Shown here one piece after another: positions 2,854-64,000 of a stretch of 64,000 bases of DNA. The stretch comes from a virus (lineage: Duplodnaviria > Caudoviricetes): IMG/VR virus record IMGVR_UViG_3300028888_000002; one strand, written 5' to 3'. The notes below the pieces were generated by a model that had not been told where the DNA came from, did not search any database, and worked only from the letters and a program-made list of their open reading frames with translations. Position numbers and translations under genes: made by a program. Every line of letters begins with the position of its first letter. The stretch's first letter is position 1.

Positions 2854-5076
2854 TTAGCGACCAAACCTGGCACCCTTGCGTTCCAGGATTTCTGTCAGCA
2901 AGTCGGTGGAAGCGGTTTCCTTTCCGTCCAAAACGCCATCAAGCATTTTCGCCCTAGCGTCCAGGACTTCAATGGCTTCCATATCCACGGTTCCAGGTGC
3001 TACAAGATAGTAAGAAGTGACGGAGTTATGCTGCCCCGACCTGTGCAGACGGTCTTCTGCCTGCCTGTGGAAGTTCGGGGTGTGCGAAAATTCAGCGAAA
3101 GCCACATCGGAGCAGACTTCCTGGAAGCCGTCAATGCCGACACCGCCCGCCTGGATATTGGCGACGATTACACGGCACTTTGGGTCGTTAATGAACTTCT
3201 TACGGGTTTCTTCACGTTCCGTGGCGGTCATACCGCCATAGATAATCGCAGGGCTGTAATCCTTGAGCGTGTCATAGAGGACTTCCACGACGGAGCGGTG
3301 CCACGCAAACAGCAGCAACTTCTTGTCCGATTCCAGGAAGTCTTCAATCCACTGCAACATAGACTTCTCTTTGAGAGCGTAGGCGGTTCGGAGCAGGTGG
3401 GCGACCTTATTGCGGGCGTTCTCACGTTCGCCCTTGATAGTTTCACCCGAAAATGCGATACGTTCCTCTTCGTAGTAATCGTCCATAGCGGATTGGTCCA
3501 CTTCAAGCGGGACGACTTCCATAACTTTGGGCGGGAGGTCTTTCATTACTTCGTTCTTCGTCCTGCGGAGCATACAGCGGACAAGCAGTTCGTGGAGTTC
3601 TTCCACATTGGACGCACCGTTGAACTTTACCCTGCCATAGCTGTCAGTCTGCGGGTCACAATACCTGTTCTTGAACATATAGAAGTTCTTGAACATAGAC
3701 GGCTCCACGATAGAAAGCAGCGTCCAAAACTGCATAGGCTTTGACATAGCGGGCGTTCCGCTCATACCGATACAGTGCGGGATAATCTTTGAGAGTTCCT
3801 TGAAAGCGATAGCTCTTTGAGAGTCGGGGTTTCCGATAGCCTGCACTTCGTCGCCTACAAGCAGACGGAACCCAACCTGGGCAAGCGGACCATCGCACAC
3901 GTAGAACACGTTGGTTTTACCGTTGCGTTCGGTGGACTCAAAGTGCCCCGCCCAATCCGAAAGCACGTCCCAATTTATGATATAGCTCTTATACTTTGAC
4001 AGCGGGTGCGGGGTCTTACCGCTCAACACTTCAACGTCGGGATAATGCTTCTTTGTAGCCCCTACCCATTTCCTATACGCTTCCTGCCACTGCAACTTCG
4101 TAGGGGCGTTCACCACATAAAGAGCGGGATAGGCATTCGCATAGACCATCCAGGACAACGCTTCTACGGTCTTACCGCAGTTGTGGACGACTGTATGGTT
4201 CGCAACAAAGTTCCCGAAATTCAGCACCTTTACGTCGTAGGTCATTCGCATTCCTGCGGACGTGATAGACACGACTTTCGCCATAGCGGACTTGCCGTCC
4301 CTTTCAACCTGGACGTATGCGTTCAAGGTGTCCTTGATTTCGGTCCAACCACTATCCGTAAGCACCTTATGGTCGGGCGTGGCAATAATGTAGGTATCGT
4401 CTTCAAGGGTAGCGTGGACGCAGCGTTTGATACCGCTTTGGATAACGTCCACGACTTCACCCATACCCAACGTATGCCCGTCTGCCAACAAACACTGAAT
4501 ATCCCAATCGCACGTCCCCTTTGTCCTGGCGAAAGCACGATACAGGGATTCCAGGGAAGTCTTGCGGGTCTTCCCGTTATTTCGGACGGTCACGGTCATA
4601 TCGCCACAGACGCAACCCATTTCGTCGCCCAGGGCAAGGCGACCGTGACGGAGCTGTGCGAACTTCAAGAAATCAATTTGGTAAGAACGCAGCCCAGGAA
4701 TAAGGGTTCCTTCGGGGTCCAACTTCGTAGCGTCAATCTTTGCCTGCTGCTTAACACGGGGGTCTTCACGCTTTTCGTTGGGGTCCTTTTCTTTCGGGGG
4801 ATTTGTCCAACCCGAAGCCTCCATCCAGGTCTTCGTCCCAATGTTCCAGGGAACTTCCCATTTTTGAGTCGCAGCGTTGTATTGACGTTCGGGCAGCTTG
4901 CGAACGCCTTCAAGAACTTTCTTCCAGGCATCCTTGTTATACGTGAACCAGGTCAACGCCACAATGGACTTGTCAACTTTCGTAAATTCGGCTTCATATC
5001 GCACACCCGCAATAGGTTCAATGGGCGTGGGGGCACGGCTCAATCTGTCCGACAAGCCAATAAGGTCATAACTCAT
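2854..5076 (-). CDS. SNF2/HARP-like helicase containing an intein
   Basis: N-terminal HARP-like segment (RKLPERQYNAATQKWEVP), DEMG..GKT Walker A interrupted by intein, DEVQ, SGTP, QAEDRLHRSGQ motif VI. Confidence 0.92.
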   Translation of the reverse strand: MSYDLIGLSDRLSRAPTPIEPIAGVRYEAEFTKVDKSIVALTWFTYNKDAWKKVLEGVRKLPERQYNAATQKWEVPWNIGTKTWMEASGWTNPPKEKDPNEKREDPRVKQQAKIDATKLDPEGTLIPGLRSYQIDFLKFAQLRHGRLALGDEMGCVCGDMTVTVRNNGKTRKTSLESLYRAFARTKGTCDWDIQCLLADGHTLGMGEVVDVIQSGIKRCVHATLEDDTYIIATPDHKVLTDSGWTEIKDTLNAYVQVERDGKSAMAKVVSITSAGMRMTYDVKVLNFGNFVANHTVVHNCGKTVEALSWMVYANAYPALYVVNAPTKLQWQEAYRKWVGATKKHYPDVEVLSGKTPHPLSKYKSYIINWDVLSDWAGHFESTERNGKTNVFYVCDGPLAQVGFRLLVGDEVQAIGNPDSQRAIAFKELSKIIPHCIGMSGTPAMSKPMQFWTLLSIVEPSMFKNFYMFKNRYCDPQTDSYGRVKFNGASNVEELHELLVRCMLRRTKNEVMKDLPPKVMEVVPLEVDQSAMDDYYEEERIAFSGETIKGERENARNKVAHLLRTAYALKEKSMLQWIEDFLESDKKLLLFAWHRSVVEVLYDTLKDYSPAIIYGGMTATEREETRKKFINDPKCRVIVANIQAGGVGIDGFQEVCSDVAFAEFSHTPNFHRQAEDRLHRSGQHNSVTSYYLVAPGTVDMEAIEVLDARAKMLDGVLDGKETASTDLLTEILERKGARFGR
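4180..4614 (-). mobile_element. mini-intein (145 aa, no homing endonuclease) in helicase Walker A
   Basis: Starts CVCGD (block A), ATPDHKVLT (block B), TYDVKV..FVANHTVVHN (blocks F/G), +1 residue Cys; splicing restores DEMG-CGKT. Confidence 0.93.
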
Positions 5077-12914: not shown

Positions 12915-12958
12915 AATATAACAAAATACCTGTGTGGTGTCAACAGGTATTGTTAAAA
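12915..12958 (-). promoter_or_regulatory. sigma70-type promoter with inverted-repeat operator
   Basis: TTGACA-N17-TATATT; AATACCTG..CAGGTATT flanks the -35. Confidence 0.8.
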
Positions 12959-27636: not shown

Positions 27637-27960
27637 TTAGATATGGTTTTCCTTGACGAAAGTGCTGCTAGAGTAAATGGACGAAGCGATTGTGTTCACT
27701 GCGGTCAAGAGCGTGTCCTTGTCGTCAAGCTGTGCAGGAACCTTGAAATCCAGGATAGCCGTTCCGTTGACGGGACAATCGCTCAAATCCACGGGAACAC
27801 CGTTAGCCCTAAAGGAATGTGCAGTGAAACTCCAAACGCCTGCAAAAATGTCATAGCTTGCGTCAATGTAGAAAGCTGCGTTACGCTTCGTCGCCTTTGC
27901 GAACCACTGCTTGACCTGCTTTCCGTTACGGGTATATTTGAGAATTGTTTCTACTGCCAT
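27637..27960 (-). CDS. hypothetical early protein
   Basis: First gene after operator promoter, start MAVETI. Confidence 0.7.
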   Translation of the reverse strand: MAVETILKYTRNGKQVKQWFAKATKRNAAFYIDASYDIFAGVWSFTAHSFRANGVPVDLSDCPVNGTAILDFKVPAQLDDKDTLLTAVNTIASSIYSSSTFVKENHI

Positions 27961-27997
27961 TGGGCTATCCTCGGTTATTGGTTGTCTTTCTGCGTAT

Positions 27998-28042
27998 AAT
28001 ATAACAAAATACCTGCCGTTCGTCAACAGGTATTGTTAAAAT
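27998..28042 (-). promoter_or_regulatory. sigma70-type promoter with inverted-repeat operator
   Basis: TTGACG-N17-TATATT; AATACCTG..CAGGTATT. Confidence 0.8.
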
Positions 28043-29702: not shown

Positions 29703-30338
29703 TCACTTAATGAGTTCCTTCGGCAAAAGGCGTTCCCTGGTTTCGGGGTAGCGACAAATCAAGTAGCCACGGAGCATAGCGTAATAGACCTTGTAAAGAC
29801 CCTGTGCAGGACCGTAAATGTGCGTATCAATTTGGAAGAACGCACTCAAGAACGGCAGCAGCGGATTGTCTGCGTAACGCTTGACGGGTAAATCCTTCGT
29901 GTATTCGTCCATACACGGGAACATCACCAACGGACGTTCCGTTATAGCGACAACGCAAATGGGGGTTTTCTTATAGGCGTAGGTAAACTTCGTTACGCTT
30001 TTCAGCTTCTCAACGTTTTCAGTCAAGCCCAAACTCTTTGTAAGGCTGCGGGCGAAGTCTGCCAAGAAATTGAACTGTTCCTCGGAGCAGTCCATAAGGC
30101 TTTCAAGAATGCCCTGGGGCTTTTTATTACGCAAGCGTTCAAGCAGGCACTTGCCCAACTTCGTGACCTTGTAACCCCACGGGTCCGTTTCTTTCTTTGC
30201 GGGCTGTGCCTTGTCTTCAATATCCTTGCGACGCTTTACGCTCTTTTCAAGAGTCTTGCGACGTTCTGCAATCCTTTCAAAGACAGCCTTGTATTTAGGC
30301 TTTTCGTCTTTTACGGGTTTCTGTTTTTTGGTAGCCAT
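29703..30338 (-). CDS. hypothetical protein
   Basis: 211 aa, AAAACCGAGGA RBS, basic N-terminus. Confidence 0.7.
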   Translation of the reverse strand: MATKKQKPVKDEKPKYKAVFERIAERRKTLEKSVKRRKDIEDKAQPAKKETDPWGYKVTKLGKCLLERLRNKKPQGILESLMDCSEEQFNFLADFARSLTKSLGLTENVEKLKSVTKFTYAYKKTPICVVAITERPLVMFPCMDEYTKDLPVKRYADNPLLPFLSAFFQIDTHIYGPAQGLYKVYYAMLRGYLICRYPETRERLLPKELIK

Positions 30339-30555
30339 TTCGTTTCCTCGGTTTTTGTGAAAAGTTGTATGAATAAGTTTGTCCGTTGTCGGACAAGCAG
30401 CCTGCCGTAACGTCCAGGCATTGAAAGGTCCGTGAAACTTCGTCGTCCACCTGGGGTTCTACAAGTTTACGGAGTTCCGTTTCGGACAAGGTGCTGCTGT
30501 TCGCAGACACCTTAACCGTCACGGTGTAAGTCTTTTCAAAGACCAATTTAGCCAT
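30295..30555 (-). CDS. hypothetical protein
   Basis: Start MAKLVF. Confidence 0.5.
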   Translation of the reverse strand: MAKLVFEKTYTVTVKVSANSSTLSETELRKLVEPQVDDEVSRTFQCLDVTAGCLSDNGQTYSYNFSQKPRKRNGYQKTETRKRRKA

Positions 30556-33146: not shown

Positions 33147-33215
33147 AAAAAAGCCCCGCCCATTTCCCGCACTTTAGACAACCACGACCGAGGATTGGGA
33201 AAAATTGGGCGGGGC
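33147..33215 (-). terminator. terminator-like hairpin with large loop antisense to early-gene leaders
   Basis: GCCCCGCCCAATTTTTCCC / GGGAAATGGGCGGGGC followed by T-run; loop AATCCTCGGTCGTGGTTGTCT. Confidence 0.75.
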
Positions 33216-33223
33216 AAAATTCC

Positions 33224-33787
33224 TTAAAGGTTATTCAACCGTTTGCTAATCCGTGTTAGAGCTATCTTTGCACACATCAAGGCGTTCTTATATCCTTCGT
33301 CGGTAAGGATTTCATAAGCCTGGTAGTTGTGCCCGTCTAGGTGGGTCCTAAACTTGCCGTCACGGACGCAGGTTGAAGATAAGGGGTATGCCAACTTTAC
33401 AGGTATGACACAACCAATCTTCCCGTCTTCATTAAATTTAGCAAATAATCCGTCAACGCACAAGGTATTGTGTTCGCCATTGTCGTATATTCCGACGTTT
33501 TCCACGAAAACAATGCCGTCCGATATGCTGTTGTTAAGGTGGAATGCCTTCTTGCAAAGCTGCTCACGCAGTTCACGGACCCTGCTTTCCCAGGTCGGCT
33601 CAATGCAGGTAGCACTTACAATGACCTGCTGAAGTTCATTGACTATCTTTGAAGCGGTTGCAAGCGTGTAACGCTTGCCCTGGAACTTACGCAGGACTTT
33701 CGGGAGTTCCGCAGAAAGATACTGTTCGCACGTAGGCTGTTTAGGCTTGTTCGGAGCCTTCCTACCTTTTATTAGTCTAGCCCGCAT
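33224..33787 (-). CDS. hypothetical protein
   Basis: 187 aa coupled ORF. Confidence 0.65.
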   Translation of the reverse strand: MRARLIKGRKAPNKPKQPTCEQYLSAELPKVLRKFQGKRYTLATASKIVNELQQVIVSATCIEPTWESRVRELREQLCKKAFHLNNSISDGIVFVENVGIYDNGEHNTLCVDGLFAKFNEDGKIGCVIPVKLAYPLSSTCVRDGKFRTHLDGHNYQAYEILTDEGYKNALMCAKIALTRISKRLNNL

Positions 33788-43379: not shown

Positions 43380-43422
43380 TTTAACAATACCTGTTGACAT
43401 TCAGCAGGTATTTTATTATATT
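43380..43422 (+). promoter_or_regulatory. sigma70-type promoter with inverted-repeat operator
   Basis: TTGACA-N17-TATATT; AATACCTG..CAGGTATT. Confidence 0.8.
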
Positions 43423-44704: not shown

Positions 44705-44780
44705 GTCGGTGCTGCCGTCTAACGCATCAGTCCTAGCGGAAGACGGCAGTCACCGACACCTTGAAGTTTTATAGGACTGA
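44705..44780 (+). promoter_or_regulatory. leader hairpin/pseudoknot over RBS
   Basis: 16-bp stem 44705-44720/44741-44757; apical loop TCAGTCCTA (44727-35) complementary to TAGGACTGA (44772-80). Confidence 0.7.
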
Positions 44781-60091: not shown

Positions 60092-61059
60092 GTAGTATAA
60101 TTGAGCAGCAGGATTTGGTGGCAACCCCTGTTGACATTGAAACGTTCGTAAAGGACCCGCAGTATCTAGGGAATATCGTTGGCGATGGTATTTACCCGTA
60201 TTGGTTGGAGCAGTTCAAGAAAATCTATGCTGCCTCCGATGGTTCTCCGTTCTTTTTGTCGGAGTATAGCGAAGTCCTGTTTGCGGGTGCTTTGGGGGCG
60301 GGCAGAAGTTTTGCTGCTATCGTAGGGTTCCTGTATGAACTCTATATCCTTACGCTTGTAAAGGACCCCCACAAGAAATGGACCCTGCTGCCGACTACAC
60401 CGATTGATTTGGTGGTCATTACTGCGGACGCAAGCAACACGCTTCTTTCCGACCGTATCTTGGACTGCATTAACGTTTCCCCGTATTTCAAGTCTATTTT
60501 GCTGCCGAATAAGGGTTCTGCTCTTGAATCCAATATGTTCCCGAATCACGCAGGTCTTGCTGTTGTTGCTAACAATCGGTTCTTGTTGGGACGTGCTATT
60601 TTCGGTGCTATCGTGGATGATAGTTGCTTCCCGCAGGAAAAACCACTGTGCGATTTATGGTTTAAGAATATATCCGAACTATACACTTGTTCGTGGCGAC
60701 GTGGGTTTTCCAGGTTTGGCTGTGCAGGGACTACACCGCTTCGTATGTGGGTAGCTGTGGCTTCAAGTTCTCCCTTGTATGCCCTGGTTGATGAACGTAG
60801 AAAACGTGGCTATGGCATATACTATGTTTCTCCGTCTATTTGGGAAGCACAGGCGTTTAAGGGTGTCTATTGCGGTGATACGTTCTCCGTGTTTGTCGGT
60901 TCCGATACGGAACCCCCGAAGATTGTCACGGATATAAACGACCTTGTGAAATATAAGGACAAGATTATCCAGGTCCCTGTTGAATATCACCAGGATTTTG
61001 AAAAGAATATCCGTGATGCTGTTCAAGAATTGGCGGGCATCCCTGTCGCAAAGTTTTAA
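60088..61059 (+). CDS. truncated terminase paralogue (ATPase domain only, degenerate motifs)
   Basis: Shares PVDIETF, YPYWL, KDPHKK..PTTPI, SPYF.S.LLP, MFP.H, IWE.QA.KG.Y.G.TF.VF.GSD, IQVPVEY..DFE.N with TerL; ends before nuclease domain. Confidence 0.85.
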   Translation: MSSIIEQQDLVATPVDIETFVKDPQYLGNIVGDGIYPYWLEQFKKIYAASDGSPFFLSEYSEVLFAGALGAGRSFAAIVGFLYELYILTLVKDPHKKWTLLPTTPIDLVVITADASNTLLSDRILDCINVSPYFKSILLPNKGSALESNMFPNHAGLAVVANNRFLLGRAIFGAIVDDSCFPQEKPLCDLWFKNISELYTCSWRRGFSRFGCAGTTPLRMWVAVASSSPLYALVDERRKRGYGIYYVSPSIWEAQAFKGVYCGDTFSVFVGSDTEPPKIVTDINDLVKYKDKIIQVPVEYHQDFEKNIRDAVQELAGIPVAKF

Positions 61060-61100
61060 TCACAAAAACCGCTGTGCATTACAGCAAAGGAAACACTAAA

Positions 61101-61703
61101 ATGGCTACTAAAAAAGTCGCACCGAAAACCGAAACCAAAACTGCTCCGAAGAAGGAAGTCAAGTCTGCTGCCCCGAAAAAGGAAGGGAAGACCGCTCCGA
61201 AGAAAGAAGTCAAGGTAGCTCCGAAGAAGGAAGTCAAGTCCGAAATTCCGACTACTTCTGCCCCGAAGATTATGGCTAAAATGGTTCCTGCAAAGAAGAC
61301 CGCTCCGAAGCAGGACCAGGACTACGTTGTTCTTGAACACGACCTGCTTACGAAGAATTACACGATGATTATTCACGAAGCAAATTTCAAGTTCAATGCC
61401 CCGCACCATTTTAAGGTTATCGCAGCACAGCCCGACACTGACGGTGAACACAAGGGACAGAACCGTGTCGTTGGTATCGTGAACTTCCAGGAAGGTCCGA
61501 TTAAGGAAAACGGTGTGAACGGTGTTGCCAACGAAGACTTGCTTGGTATGGTTCTTTGCCGTTTGGAAGGCTTCCAAAACAGCGAATACAAGTGCCGTGA
61601 AAACGCCCTTGCTATTACGAAGATTGAAGAAGCCCTTATGTGGCTCCGCAAGAGAACTAACGCCCGTGTGAAGCGTGGTGTTGAAGGCACGTCAAAGGTT
61701 TAA
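61101..61703 (+). CDS. Tad1-family anti-Thoeris/CBASS sponge with APKK-repeat N-terminal tail
   Basis: FQEGP.KE.GVNGV..EDLL..V..RL..FQ....CRENA.A.T..EEALMW...R...R..RGV.GT. Confidence 0.8.
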   Translation: MATKKVAPKTETKTAPKKEVKSAAPKKEGKTAPKKEVKVAPKKEVKSEIPTTSAPKIMAKMVPAKKTAPKQDQDYVVLEHDLLTKNYTMIIHEANFKFNAPHHFKVIAAQPDTDGEHKGQNRVVGIVNFQEGPIKENGVNGVANEDLLGMVLCRLEGFQNSEYKCRENALAITKIEEALMWLRKRTNARVKRGVEGTSKV

Positions 61704-61719
61704 TTGGGGGAAATGCAAA

Positions 61720-62013
61720 ATGGCTAAAAAGAAGACCGTGAAGACTGCTCCCGTAAAGAGTCTTGCAGAAGTTATCGTTGACCTTGAACTTGAATTTGAC
61801 GAAATCGCAGGGAGGGTTGAAAAGATTGACGCTTCGTTGGACGATGACGACTTCTGTGATAGAATTGGTATTGAACATACTAACTTGCTTATTCAGCAAC
61901 GCAACGCTATGTTGGAATATCGTGACAAGTTGGGCATTCGCCTAGCCTTGCTCCGTCGTGCGAACGCAAAGGCTGTAGAAGCCGAAATTAAGGAAAAGGC
62001 GGTTAAGGCTTAA
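61720..62013 (+). CDS. T4 Y16Q / crAss001_48-like helical protein
   Basis: E.DE...R..K....L....F......LL..Q..AM..Y...L..R pattern. Confidence 0.65.
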   Translation: MAKKKTVKTAPVKSLAEVIVDLELEFDEIAGRVEKIDASLDDDDFCDRIGIEHTNLLIQQRNAMLEYRDKLGIRLALLRRANAKAVEAEIKEKAVKA

Positions 62014-62729
62014 TGGCTGACTCCACGCAAGATACGCTCGCACACCGTCAAATGGTCGTGGATTTCGCTACGGACTTCTGCACGTCCCTGCTTGAACGTG
62101 CAGACGGCTATGGCGACAAGACTATTTCCGACGCTGCCCTGGATTTCTGTAATGACATAATGGATAGGGCATACCGCCACGACGAATCTAAACTGCACGA
62201 ACCCGAAAAGGAACGTTTTGATTACGTCGGGACGCACCAACATTTGTCAAAGCACACCTACGGTTCCGACGAATATAAGAAGTCCCTTGAATACCTCGGA
62301 CCCGCATTGGACCACCACTATAAAGAAAACGACCACCACCCGCAGCACTTCCCCAACGGCATTAGCGGTATGAACCTTATGCAGTTGGTTGAAATGTGGC
62401 TTGATTGGCTTGCTGCTTGTAAGCGAAACAAGAATGGCAATATCTATCAATCCCTGGAAGTGAACAAGGACCGCTTCAAGATTTCGGACCAACTTTATAA
62501 CGTCCTGCTAAATCAAGCTGACGTGGTTGAATCCGACAAACGTGGCGACGGTTCTACGAACCTGTTTGGTCTTGTTGAAATGTGGTTGGACTGCGTGGCA
62601 GCTAACAGCCGTGACGAGTCAAAAAGCATTCACAGCATTGTTGAATCCGACATTGACCGCACACTGCTGTCCGAACAACTGTATAACATTATTTGCAATA
62701 CAGCGAATACATTTGAACCGCAAGGATAA
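62013..62729 (+). CDS. DUF5662-like HD-domain protein with duplicated C-terminal module
   Basis: H, RHDESK, HHYKENDHHPQHF, LVEMWLDW. Confidence 0.75.
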   Translation: MADSTQDTLAHRQMVVDFATDFCTSLLERADGYGDKTISDAALDFCNDIMDRAYRHDESKLHEPEKERFDYVGTHQHLSKHTYGSDEYKKSLEYLGPALDHHYKENDHHPQHFPNGISGMNLMQLVEMWLDWLAACKRNKNGNIYQSLEVNKDRFKISDQLYNVLLNQADVVESDKRGDGSTNLFGLVEMWLDCVAANSRDESKSIHSIVESDIDRTLLSEQLYNIICNTANTFEPQG

Positions 62730-62731
62730 CT

Positions 62732-62866
62732 ATGGCTAAAACCAAAGAAACTATCTGCAACAACTGTAATTCAAAGTCCTACTGTGCGAACAAGGCTTTG
62801 GGCGTGACGGATTGTATCAATTACAATAAGTTCCCGAAGCCGTCCGCAGACGAATTTAAACGATGA
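62732..62866 (+). CDS. small Cys-rich protein (44 aa)
   Basis: AAGGA RBS; CNNC..C..C; stop overlaps next ATG. Confidence 0.55.
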   Translation: MAKTKETICNNCNSKSYCANKALGVTDCINYNKFPKPSADEFKR

Positions 62867-63153
62867 ACGCATACGCTAACAAGCTGCTTGCAAGAGCCGA
62901 GGGAATTTGGCACAATCTAGGGTTGGCACTTCAAGAGAAGAAATCCCTTGAACACGACGGCTACACGTCCATATCGCTCTATTTTGACCGTATCACACCC
63001 GCCCAGGCTGAAATGCTTGTTTCTCAAATGAGCAAGGCTTTCCGCAGGGCTAACGTGTATTGGAAAGAAGACGAGCGTGGGACGAAGATTTGTGTTGAAA
63101 TCCCGCCTATGGGTTCGGGGACCCCCGTTCCTATGAAACGCAGTTGCAGGTAG
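62863..63153 (+). CDS. hypothetical protein
   Basis: 96 aa. Confidence 0.6.
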   Translation: MNAYANKLLARAEGIWHNLGLALQEKKSLEHDGYTSISLYFDRITPAQAEMLVSQMSKAFRRANVYWKEDERGTKICVEIPPMGSGTPVPMKRSCR

Positions 63154-63174
63154 TAACCACTTTGTTTATATTTT

Positions 63175-63311
63175 GGGAGCAGGACGGTTTGTAGCCATTC
63201 CGTCTTGTTACTTCCATAAGGGTGGAATAGCCCTACGTCGCTACTTTGGTAGCAGGCTCATTGGCGTGGGGCGGGGCAGCGTAGTTCTCGGTTTTCTACG
63301 CTGCCTTTTTC
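63175..63311 (+). ncRNA. candidate four-hairpin small RNA
   Basis: Own promoter TTGCAG-N17-TATATT (63144-63172), four consecutive stems, terminal GGCAGCGTAG/CTACGCTGCC + T-run; no ORF. Confidence 0.65.
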
Positions 63312-63340
63312 TTGACAGCCACCAGGTAATTTGTTATATT
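63312..63340 (+). promoter_or_regulatory. thyX promoter with operator half-site
   Basis: TTGACA-N17-TATATT containing CAGGTAAT. Confidence 0.7.
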
Positions 63341-63366
63341 TAAGGGACCTAAACAAGAGGTTCAAA

Positions 63367-64000
63367 ATGCCCATTACGATTATCAGTGTTACCGAAAACC
63401 CGCTTCAACTCATAGGTGAGTCCGCAGGTATTTGTTGGAATGCACCCGTTGACGACCCGCAGAAGAATATCCTTCGTGCGATTTCCTGCATTGAAGCGGA
63501 CCACGGGCGTGTCCTGGAATATCCCGATATTACGATTGTGATTGACGGTAAGTCTGCCCGTGCGTTCCGTGAACTCTATACGCACATAGGTGGGGGACCT
63601 ACCCGCTTGCAATCGTCCACCCGATATGTTGACGAAAGCAACTTTAAGTATTATACGCCCCCGTCTTGCCAAAAGGACGGTGTGCGTGAAGTTTACGAAA
63701 AGGGTATGAAGCAGGTTGCGGAATTTTACGGGGAGCTTATTGAACTAGGTGTTCCCCGTGAAGACGCAGCTAACGCCCTGCCGTTGGGTATGGACTCAAA
63801 GGTGGTGTGGAAGATTAACTTGCGGTCCCTGGTGAATTTTATGAACAAGCGTCTGTGCAGCAGGGCACTGCTTGAAATCCGACAGTTTGCAAACGAACTG
63901 CGTTCTATGCTTATGGGCAGGAACGTGGAATGGATGTGGATTTGCGAAAACCTGTTTGTTCCGTCCTGCGAACGTTACAAGTTCCTTAACAAGAAAATGT
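63367..64000 (+). CDS. thyX: FAD-dependent thymidylate synthase (partial)
   Basis: Hand-translated: HGRVLEY, SARAFRELYTH..TRLQSSTRYV, EDAANALP, NLRSLVNF...RLC.RA..EIR. Confidence 0.88.
   Translation, partial: MPITIISVTENPLQLIGESAGICWNAPVDDPQKNILRAISCIEADHGRVLEYPDITIVIDGKSARAFRELYTHIGGGPTRLQSSTRYVDESNFKYYTPPSCQKDGVREVYEKGMKQVAEFYGELIELGVPREDAANALPLGMDSKVVWKINLRSLVNFMNKRLCSRALLEIRQFANELRSMLMGRNVEWMWICENLFVPSCERYKFLNKKM

Follow-up and report, generated by a model that had tools for sequence, protein, structure and literature searches.

Structure of the locus

The sequence analysed here (the window) is a stretch of 64,000 nucleotides from a virus of the Caudoviricetes (IMG/VR record IMGVR_UViG_3300028888_000002). 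Close to its end, at positions 63144 to 63311 of the + strand, a structured element lies between a gene for a protein of 96 amino acids (aa; 62863-63153, + strand) and a ThyX gene (Pfam Thy1, E = 9e-37). The element is a non-coding RNA gene of about 130 nt that is conserved in jumbo phages of the ruminant gut.

In the minimum free energy (MFE) fold of the RNA, hairpin 1 (63179-63208) has a 9-bp stem and a 12-nt loop, UUUGUAGCCAUU, at 63188-63199, which contains the motif GCCAUU (M1). Hairpin 2 (63213-63226) is a small and variable CUCC/GGG hairpin. Hairpin 3 (63230-63272) consists of a 10-bp outer stem with a stacked inner hairpin at 63240-63253 and a 9-nt bulge on its 3' side, AGGCUCAUU, at 63254-63262; this is a bulge and not a terminal loop, and it contains the invariant motif GCUCAUU (M2). 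The fourth hairpin is an intrinsic terminator (63273-63310), made of a 12-bp G+C-rich stem (63273-63284/63296-63307) and a U-run (T-run at 63306-63310). Its 11-nt loop, UUCUCGGUUUU, at 63285-63295, contains the motif UYCUCGGUU (M3). The MFE of the 142-nt stretch is -65.4 kcal/mol, against -41.9 +/- 3.5 kcal/mol in 200 shuffled sequences (z = -6.66), and the reverse strand folds more weakly (z = -4.8).

A promoter-like site precedes hairpin 1 at 63144-63172, with a -35-like TTGCAG at 63144-63149, a 17-nt spacer and a -10 box, TATATT, at 63167-63172; this site takes in the stop codon (63151-63153) with which the 96-aa gene ends. The -10 box and its TTTGT flank are similar to those of the canonical promoters of the phage. 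The original prediction, made from the sequence of the window, described a promoter, stacked hairpins and a terminator. The hairpins, loops and terminator are exactly as described, but the -35 element has just 3 of the 6 consensus positions and falls below the threshold of the promoter scan. A TATATT or TACATT box is present 5-9 nt 5' of hairpin 1 in all homologues. Conservation of the promoter in the relatives is restricted to this -10 box, with the -35 not being kept, and no upstream promoter class common to the RNA copies was found. The RNA could thus also arise as the 3' end of the upstream operon. The ThyX gene, directly after the RNA terminator, has its own promoter (TTGACA-17-TATATT, 11/12 positions).

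A peptide-coding gene on either strand was considered for this location and rejected, since all three frames are interrupted by stops in 7 of the 16 distinct homologues and the insertions and deletions are not multiples of three. A 56-codon open reading frame (ORF) starting with TTG across the RNA region is not conserved, and the minus strand has only ORFs of 6-10 codons, which are likewise not conserved.

Homologues and covariation

Homologues were sought by two routes. The 96-aa protein led to 22 homologues, the contigs of which were examined, and a conserved-motif pattern was scanned through IMG/VR, the JGI metagenomes and the GTDB genomes, the results being filtered with a covariance model built on the first 11 RNA copies. 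There are about 20 copies of the RNA, 16 of them distinct sequences in the alignment (A2), and all are from gut or rumen assemblies of sheep, cattle, buffalo or deer, the longest of the contigs being 216 kb. In the closest record found (G001, 101.6 kb) the queried 301-nt stretch at 63100-63400, which includes the RNA, is identical. A BLASTN search of GenBank phages gave no match, and a looser pattern scan of IMG/VR returned at least 114 loci, all chance matches.

A single match came from a genome collection, locus L156, on an 88.7-kb contig in the 1.3-Mb metagenome-assembled genome (MAG) 'Clostridia bacterium RGIG7175' (GTDB; G004). This MAG is without a 16S gene and has an 11-mer of the phage ribosome-binding site on six contigs (13 copies, against 0 for the control). 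It may be that the bin is largely phage DNA, and hence provides no host identification.

The same four helices are returned from the homologues by RNAalifold, with double compensatory changes in 19 of 31 pairs, and each homologue folded singly has the same architecture. Pairing extends to 93% of the cells in the 17-row model alignment and to 80% in its shuffles, and the covariation score of 0.47 (0.25 in shuffles) was reached by none of 500 shuffled alignments. When the partner columns are slid by 1-3 positions, pairing drops to 38-62%. Compensatory changes are found in 6 of the 7 modelled pairs of hairpin 1 and in 7 of the 10 of the terminator stem, in which 100% of cells pair. That G.U pairs are common and A.C pairs are rare indicates that the + strand is the folded strand and is under selection. 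The RNA takes its place as a new covariation-supported family, and the discrete, structured non-coding module of the original prediction is borne out by its covarying stems and conserved exposed motifs.

It is the unpaired motifs that are the most conserved part of the RNA. The mean pairwise identity is 0.96 for the M1 core (GCCAUU), 1.00 for the M2 core (GCUCAUU) and 0.89 for the M3 core (CUCGGUU), compared with 0.64 for paired columns and 0.57 for the other unpaired columns. The alignment had been expected to have conserved stems and variable loops; the stems do covary, but it is the stems that vary and the loop motifs that are conserved. M2 has a predicted probability of being unpaired of at least 0.95 in 14 of the 16 distinct homologues, and both M2 and M3 are predicted to be unpaired, with a probability above 0.8, in almost every copy. 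A kissing contact between M1 and M2 (AGCC with GGCU) would be of 4 bp only, and its covariation is inconsistent.

In two of the loci, L022 and L070, hairpin 1 has been swapped for an unrelated A+U-rich stem, the loop of which is again (U)GCCAUU. In locus L022 the loop of hairpin 1 is interrupted by 1.3 kb of inserted DNA (3326-4715 of its contig), with a 405-aa ORF of no Pfam family on the opposite strand, and a new TATATT box lies ahead of the replacement hairpin. That a replacement for hairpin 1, again with this motif in its loop, is found after the insertion suggests selection for the RNA. M3 is present in every homologue except L007, where the terminator loop has UCAUC in its place. In L007 the 5' arms of hairpin 1 and of the terminator have 10 nt in common, GGCGGUGCGG (3316-3326 and 3412-3422), which suggests an internal duplication or gene conversion.

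The terminator loop and a recurrent ribosome-binding site

M3 is the complement of AACCGAGGA, a ribosome-binding site (RBS) that is recurrent in the phage. In most relatives M3 is a perfect 9-mer (UCCUCGGUU), and the variant in the window, UUCUCGGUU, has one G.U pair; the C/U variation within M3 is neutral to pairing because of G.U wobble. The original prediction had noted that the terminator loop is antisense to the RBS at two sites, near 1320 and 30350, both with AAAACCGAGGA. This complementarity has proved to be much wider. The sequence ACCGAGG is present 17 times in the window against 6.6 expected, a count reached by none of 100 shuffles, and for at least 11 of the copies, on the sense strand, a start codon follows 5-9 nt downstream. 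Among the 8-mers in the 25 nt before predicted starts, AACCGAGG and ACCGAGGA take the two highest ranks, both in the window and in the complete relative G003 (216 kb). There are 34 copies of AACCGAGG in G003 and 15 in G001, and 0 of the reversed control pattern.

Five of these 11 or more RBS sites follow a canonical promoter in a conserved short leader, ...AGACAACCAC..AACCGAGGAUAGC..AUG, and the rest are operon-internal. The leader with AACCGAGGA follows 5 of the 6 promoters in the window that bear the extended AGGTAWTTTGTTATATT motif. Near-identical promoters (TTGACA, 11 nt, GGTAWTTTGT, TATATT) are found at 12943, 23657, 28026 and 34529 on the - strand and at 43394 and 63312 on the + strand. 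An example of the promoter-leader cassette lies at 27950-28026 (- strand), where TTGACG-17-TATATT is followed by a leader ending in AGACAACCAAUAACCGAGGAUAGCCCA and then AUG, and those at 12943, 23657, 34529 and 43394 are similar. Looser promoter matches are followed by the leader in 22 of 35 cases in G003 and in 11 of 33 in the other complete relative, G002. Operon-internal RBSs with AACCGAGG are at 1325, 7272, 18842, 23031, 27637 and 30352, all on the - strand.

Contiguous Watson-Crick matches of at least 8 nt between each loop and the translation-initiation regions (TIRs) were compared with those of 300 shuffled loops. For M3 this covered the window and G003, the corresponding loop of G002 being just 5 nt. 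M3 has 5 such matches in the window (p < 0.003) and 5 in G003 (p = 0.03), with 28 in G003 at 7 nt or more (p = 0.007). The same probes match far fewer intragenic windows. The energies of the M3 duplex are -13.7 and -15.0 kcal/mol with the cassette TIRs and -8.0 and -10.6 kcal/mol with other TIRs, and M3 alone is singled out in this way. Within the flanking 3 kb of any RNA locus there is no M3-complementary site.

The motif-bearing genes are in the replication/recombination arm, where DnaB-like, SNF2, primase, methylase and SbcCD-like genes are found, and most of the motif-bearing genes are small ORFs of no assigned function. The SNF2-family helicase gene (2854-5076, - strand) also has a sub-threshold Intein_splicing match over residues 260-299 (28 bits; cut-off 35.8) and may carry an intein.

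One gene, at 29703-30338, had been proposed to be matched by two loops of the RNA together. Its TIR (30331-30355, - strand) does contain AAAACCGAGGAA at the RBS followed by AAUGGCUACCAA at the start, but no orthologue was detected in G002 or G003 and the gene is ruled out as a conserved two-site target.

Matches of M1 and M2

Complementarity of M1 to start contexts of the type AAUGGCUA(C) is modestly above chance. There are 3 matches of at least 8 nt to TIRs in the window (p = 0.003) and 4 in G003 (p = 0.05), with no enrichment in G002. The best matches are in the RNA's own operon, at the starts of the Tad1-like gene (AAUGGCUAC, 9 nt) and of the Sequestin gene (AAUGGCUA, 8 nt), and these are conserved in G003 with the same lengths. 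A small cassette gene of G003 has a perfect 12/12 M1 site beside AACCGAGG. The hairpin-1 loop had been described as antisense to the starts of the genes at 61101 and 30338, and nearly so to that at 62732. These matches exist, with AAUGGCUAC at the first two and AUGGCUA at the third, but they are soft: no start contexts are commoner than AUGGCU and AUGGCA in any of the three genomes, and a generic Met-Ala start largely explains the M1 matches. Targeting of start codons by M1 is unproven.

For M2, the only invariant motif, no enriched phage target was found in the three genomes, with 0 matches in the window and 0 in G003, so that the 'anti-AUG' role proposed for hairpin 3 is not supported. Its GGCUCAU resembles the anticodon arm of the initiator tRNA. 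Mimicry of that anticodon is not supported by the structure, as M2 is in a bulge and not in a 7-nt loop. Mimicry of a Cas12a-like CRISPR repeat by the inner hairpin of hairpin 3 was rejected, since the inner stem covaries freely. As to an RNA anti-CRISPR that mimics a host CRISPR repeat, all hairpin stems covary freely and no repeat-like stem is kept, in a comparison confined to the RNA copies themselves.

Gene neighbourhood and insertions

The RNA is always preceded by the 96-aa gene. The protein belongs to no Pfam or PHROG family and gave no Atlas lead above 0.82; its AF2 model is confident, shows an alpha/beta fold of a generic kind and matched nothing in the PDB at E < 1e-3. The upstream order is conserved, being an Acb2/Tad1-hairpin protein, Sequestin (PF21825), DUF5662, a 44-aa Cys-rich protein, the 96-aa protein and then the RNA. 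This places a cluster of anti-defence-type genes (61101-62013 in the window) upstream of the RNA, as is also the case in the relatives. The first gene, at 61101, encodes a Lys-rich N-terminus and an Acb2/Tad1 hairpin domain (PHROG 2428, E = 1e-43); as its Pfam match of 27 bits is exactly at the cut-off, the name 'Tad1' can be tentative only.

The 3' neighbour of the RNA varies and may be ThyX, DUF7487, a gene for a 120-164-aa 'MADxIDW' protein or a TnpB insertion, with Tad3 slightly farther away in some relatives. TnpB elements (OrfB_IS605 / Cas12f-like TNB) lie beside the RNA on the opposite strand in L019/L021 (3750-5000) and in L030 (690-2000). They share the end sequence TTGAAC, and the insertion in L019 truncates the downstream gene. 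The RNA was considered as a TnpB omega RNA and this was rejected, since most loci, including the window, are without tnpB and, where present, tnpB is a separate insertion on the other strand. A different insertion, of 205 nt and itself structured, is within the loop of hairpin 2 in L019/L021 (about 3373-3577) and leaves the remaining RNA intact. Neither an Rfam match nor an exact IMG/VR copy was found for this insertion, which may be an expansion domain, an intron-like sequence or a mobile element.

Relation to known RNAs and regulators

The RNA matches no known family. In Rfam 15 there were 0 matches at the gathering threshold across the whole window, so the match to a known RNA that the original prediction had asked to be sought is absent. 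At permissive E-values there was a chance match to a long non-coding RNA on 63000-63450 (E = 2.1) and two chance matches on L019 (E = 0.35 and 4.3). ARAGORN found no tRNA or tmRNA in the window.

The closest phage-encoded system is the c4 antisense RNA of P1 and P7, a small, highly structured RNA with exposed loops complementary to the ribosome-binding region of a phage mRNA, the translation of which it blocks (PMC12197685). The M3 loop is likewise complementary to a phage RBS, that of at least 11 genes in the window, a likeness of mechanism only. The RNA matches the C4 model of Rfam neither in sequence nor in structure. While c4 controls immunity in a temperate phage and has a single target, icd/ant, which lies downstream in the same transcript as c4, the motif described here is complementary to the repeated RBS and leader of many genes of a virulent-type jumbo phage, and the seed is in the terminator loop. 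No downstream target of the c4 type (a2/b2 sites at the icd-ant RBS) is present in the flanking 3 kb of any locus.

Several Gram-positive small RNAs (sRNAs) have C-rich loops, including the 3' domain of S. aureus RNAIII, the Rsa RNAs and 6C of M. tuberculosis. Their pyrimidine-rich loops pair with the Shine-Dalgarno (SD) regions of several mRNAs, sometimes with two distant contacts per mRNA, and keep the initiation complex from forming (PMC2837412, PMC6486639). The phage RNA resembles them in being a multi-hairpin RNA with a loop complementary to the SD regions of several genes. It is not homologous to them, however. Its seed, UYCUCGGUU rather than UCCC, also covers an AACC flank that lies 5' of the SD and is specific to the phage, and its presumed targets are the phage's own mRNAs. 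One of the seed loops of RNAIII is in its terminator hairpin, as M3 is in that of the phage RNA.

In T4, RegA and RegB down-regulate a set of early phage mRNAs post-transcriptionally through their translation-initiation regions (PMC3014915). The outcome proposed below would be the same, by functional analogy only, but T4 relies on proteins, the repressor RegA and the endoribonuclease RegB, whereas the proposed effector here is an RNA. The RNA belongs to none of these three families. When it is compared with trans-acting sRNAs in general, a conserved accessible seed with enriched targets is seen for M3, marginally for M1 and not for M2; in terms of a discrete transcript, the terminator is clear, the -10 is conserved and the -35 is weak. 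Known targets are very rare among the sRNAs of virulent phages, and no such sRNA is known to have been described for ruminant-gut jumbo phages.

A proposed antisense mechanism and its alternatives

It is possible, and tentatively the best account of the complementarity described above, that the RNA is a trans-acting, loop-seeded antisense sRNA, the terminator loop of which occludes the AACCGAGGA RBS of the cassette regulon. The RNA of about 130 nt would be transcribed from a weak sigma-70-type promoter of its own, would be the 3' end of the upstream operon's transcript, or would be produced in both ways, and its stems would be scaffolds that keep the three conserved single-stranded motifs open. 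M3 would pair antisense with AACCGAGGA in the promoter-leader cassettes and at the operon-internal sites of replication-module genes. This pairing would occlude the Shine-Dalgarno sequence and lower the translation of these genes, for instance in the course of infection. Further contacts may come from M1 at AAUGGCUA(C) starts, among them the starts of two genes in the RNA's own operon, Tad1-like and Sequestin, although support for this is weak, and M2 may serve a further partner. The analysis establishes the structure of the RNA, its conservation and the complementarity of its loop, which is beyond chance; we infer where transcription begins and ends, that pairing takes place in vivo, and in which direction and when it would act. 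If the pairing is real, the phage defines a regulon by a copied leader cassette and controls it with loop-seeded RNAs. The prediction is a sharp one, with a 9-nt seed and dozens of identical targets.

The loop complementarity had been put forward in the original prediction as the work of a multivalent RNA acting against translation initiation. As an observation, this prediction is confirmed, and its interpretation is partly supported: the complementarity is beyond chance clearly for M3 and modestly for M1, but not for M2. Several findings weigh against an antisense role. In G002, which is of the L007 lineage and the RNA of which is without M3, ACCGAGGA remains in use at 9 or more RBSs, which means that pairing by M3 cannot be the whole function. 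The motif is reduced in this phage (22 copies in total, against 35 in G003) but not absent, and its supposed co-loss with M3 was dropped as strong evidence. The lineage of L017/L018 is without the RNA, its 88-aa gene abutting the next gene. No RNase III or Hfq is encoded by G001, G002 or G003. The -35 is weak, M1 has its generic start context and M2 is without an enriched target. The target search covers phage genes only. Metatranscriptome contigs give no evidence of expression: of those from four runs over 61000-64000, one long contig spans the region and those of the other runs are scattered and of low depth, with none over 63222-63322; these decide nothing either way on a discrete transcript.

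The invariance of M2, which has no antisense target, would fit a protein-binding or decoy RNA. In this reading the three motifs are recognised by a protein of the phage or the host, for instance a regulator that binds RNA or a nuclease of a defence system, and the RNA is a member of the anti-defence block. The RNA always ends the block of Acb2/Tad1-hairpin, Sequestin and DUF5662 genes, and Tad3 is just downstream in some relatives. M1 and M2 both have the form GC(U)CAUU, adjoining a helix strand on its 5' side, which has the look of a binding site present twice, and L007 retains its CAU motifs where M3 has been lost. However, no candidate partner protein has been identified, and the adjoining 96-aa protein, with its generic fold, has no RNA-binding relative. 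A protein-binding role also leaves unexplained both the exact complementarity of M3 to the signature RBS and the wobble-neutral nature of its C/U variation, and it is considered unlikely. Slightly less probable is that the element is a module of the 3' untranslated region (UTR) of the upstream operon, made up of a terminator and stabilising hairpins, the loops of which act, if at all, in cis on the starts of the operon. The RNA begins about 25 nt or less from the stop of the 96-aa gene, it holds the first intrinsic terminator after the operon, and the -35 is not conserved. The Tad1-like, Sequestin, DUF5662 and 44-aa genes all start with AUGGCU, the M1 matches to the first two of these are those kept in both the window and G003, and both of the lineages without Sequestin (L023 and L007) have a different M1. 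On the other hand, L022 has Sequestin and an altered M1, the -10 box is conserved ahead of hairpin 1 everywhere, and the targets of M3 are outside the operon. Plain terminators have no need of three motifs at identities of 0.9-1.0.

The remaining two explanations are both very improbable. A cis-regulatory leader or attenuator, similar to a riboswitch, might govern read-through into the downstream gene, and in L020, G003, L023 and L007 the 'MADxIDW' gene does follow the terminator without a promoter of its own. But the downstream gene varies, being ThyX with its own promoter in the window and DUF7487 or a TnpB element elsewhere, and L017/L018 have the same downstream gene with no RNA. No conserved alternative (antiterminator) pairing was seen in the folds of the homologues, and there is no riboswitch match in Rfam. 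The repeated arrival of mobile sequences at this locus (TnpB in L019, L021 and L030, 1.3 kb in L022 and 205 nt in L019/L021) might instead reflect a feature of the DNA, such as a hotspot for recombination or insertion or an origin-like cluster of hairpins, with no RNA function. Against this, the strand-asymmetric G.U pairing, the covarying stems with conserved loops and the canonical terminator all point to an RNA, and the substitute hairpin 1 of L022 has retained the loop motif.

Other conserved loop elements

Two further conserved loop elements are flagged in the same genomes, near 33.2 kb and 44.7 kb in the window. These had been suggested to form a single family with the four-hairpin RNA. 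They do have conserved anti-leader or anti-RBS loops, but a covariance model of the RNA found no second copy in the window, and the two elements are therefore not homologues of the RNA. Conserved anti-RBS loops are nonetheless a recurring device of this phage group, judging from their sequences, and this recurrence raises the prior for M3 being a functional antisense seed. A broader suggestion, which is less likely than not, is that the phage has an RNA-only layer of translational control, in which several unrelated hairpin RNAs have conserved loops that pair with the shared cassette (AGACAACCAC...AACCGAGGA) or with an individual RBS. Its members would be the four-hairpin sRNA, the anti-leader terminator at 33.2 kb and the cis-acting anti-RBS hairpin in the 5' UTR at 44.7 kb. 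Such a layer would be an RNA counterpart of RegA and RegB of T4, timing or capping a whole regulon, with the sRNA at the end of a block that has anti-defence-type genes.

The 33.2-kb element (33147-33215, - strand) is a terminator hairpin after the gene at 33224-33787. The leader cassette has a stretch of some 20 nt (AGACAACCACG-ACCGAGGAU) to which the large loop of this hairpin (about 33196-33176) is antisense. The loop is kept in G003 (near 98727) and in G002 (near 189328), with the three genomes having three unrelated stems.

The 44.7-kb element (44705-44780, + strand) has a 5'-UTR hairpin at 44705-44757. The loop of this hairpin, UCAGUCCUA (44727-44735), is a 9-nt complement of the gene's own RBS, UAGGACUGA (44772-44780), which is 37 nt downstream. 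The element looks like a cis translational lock that would act, if at all, on its own RBS, and the hairpin is kept in G003 (about 110975-111046) with a covarying stem.

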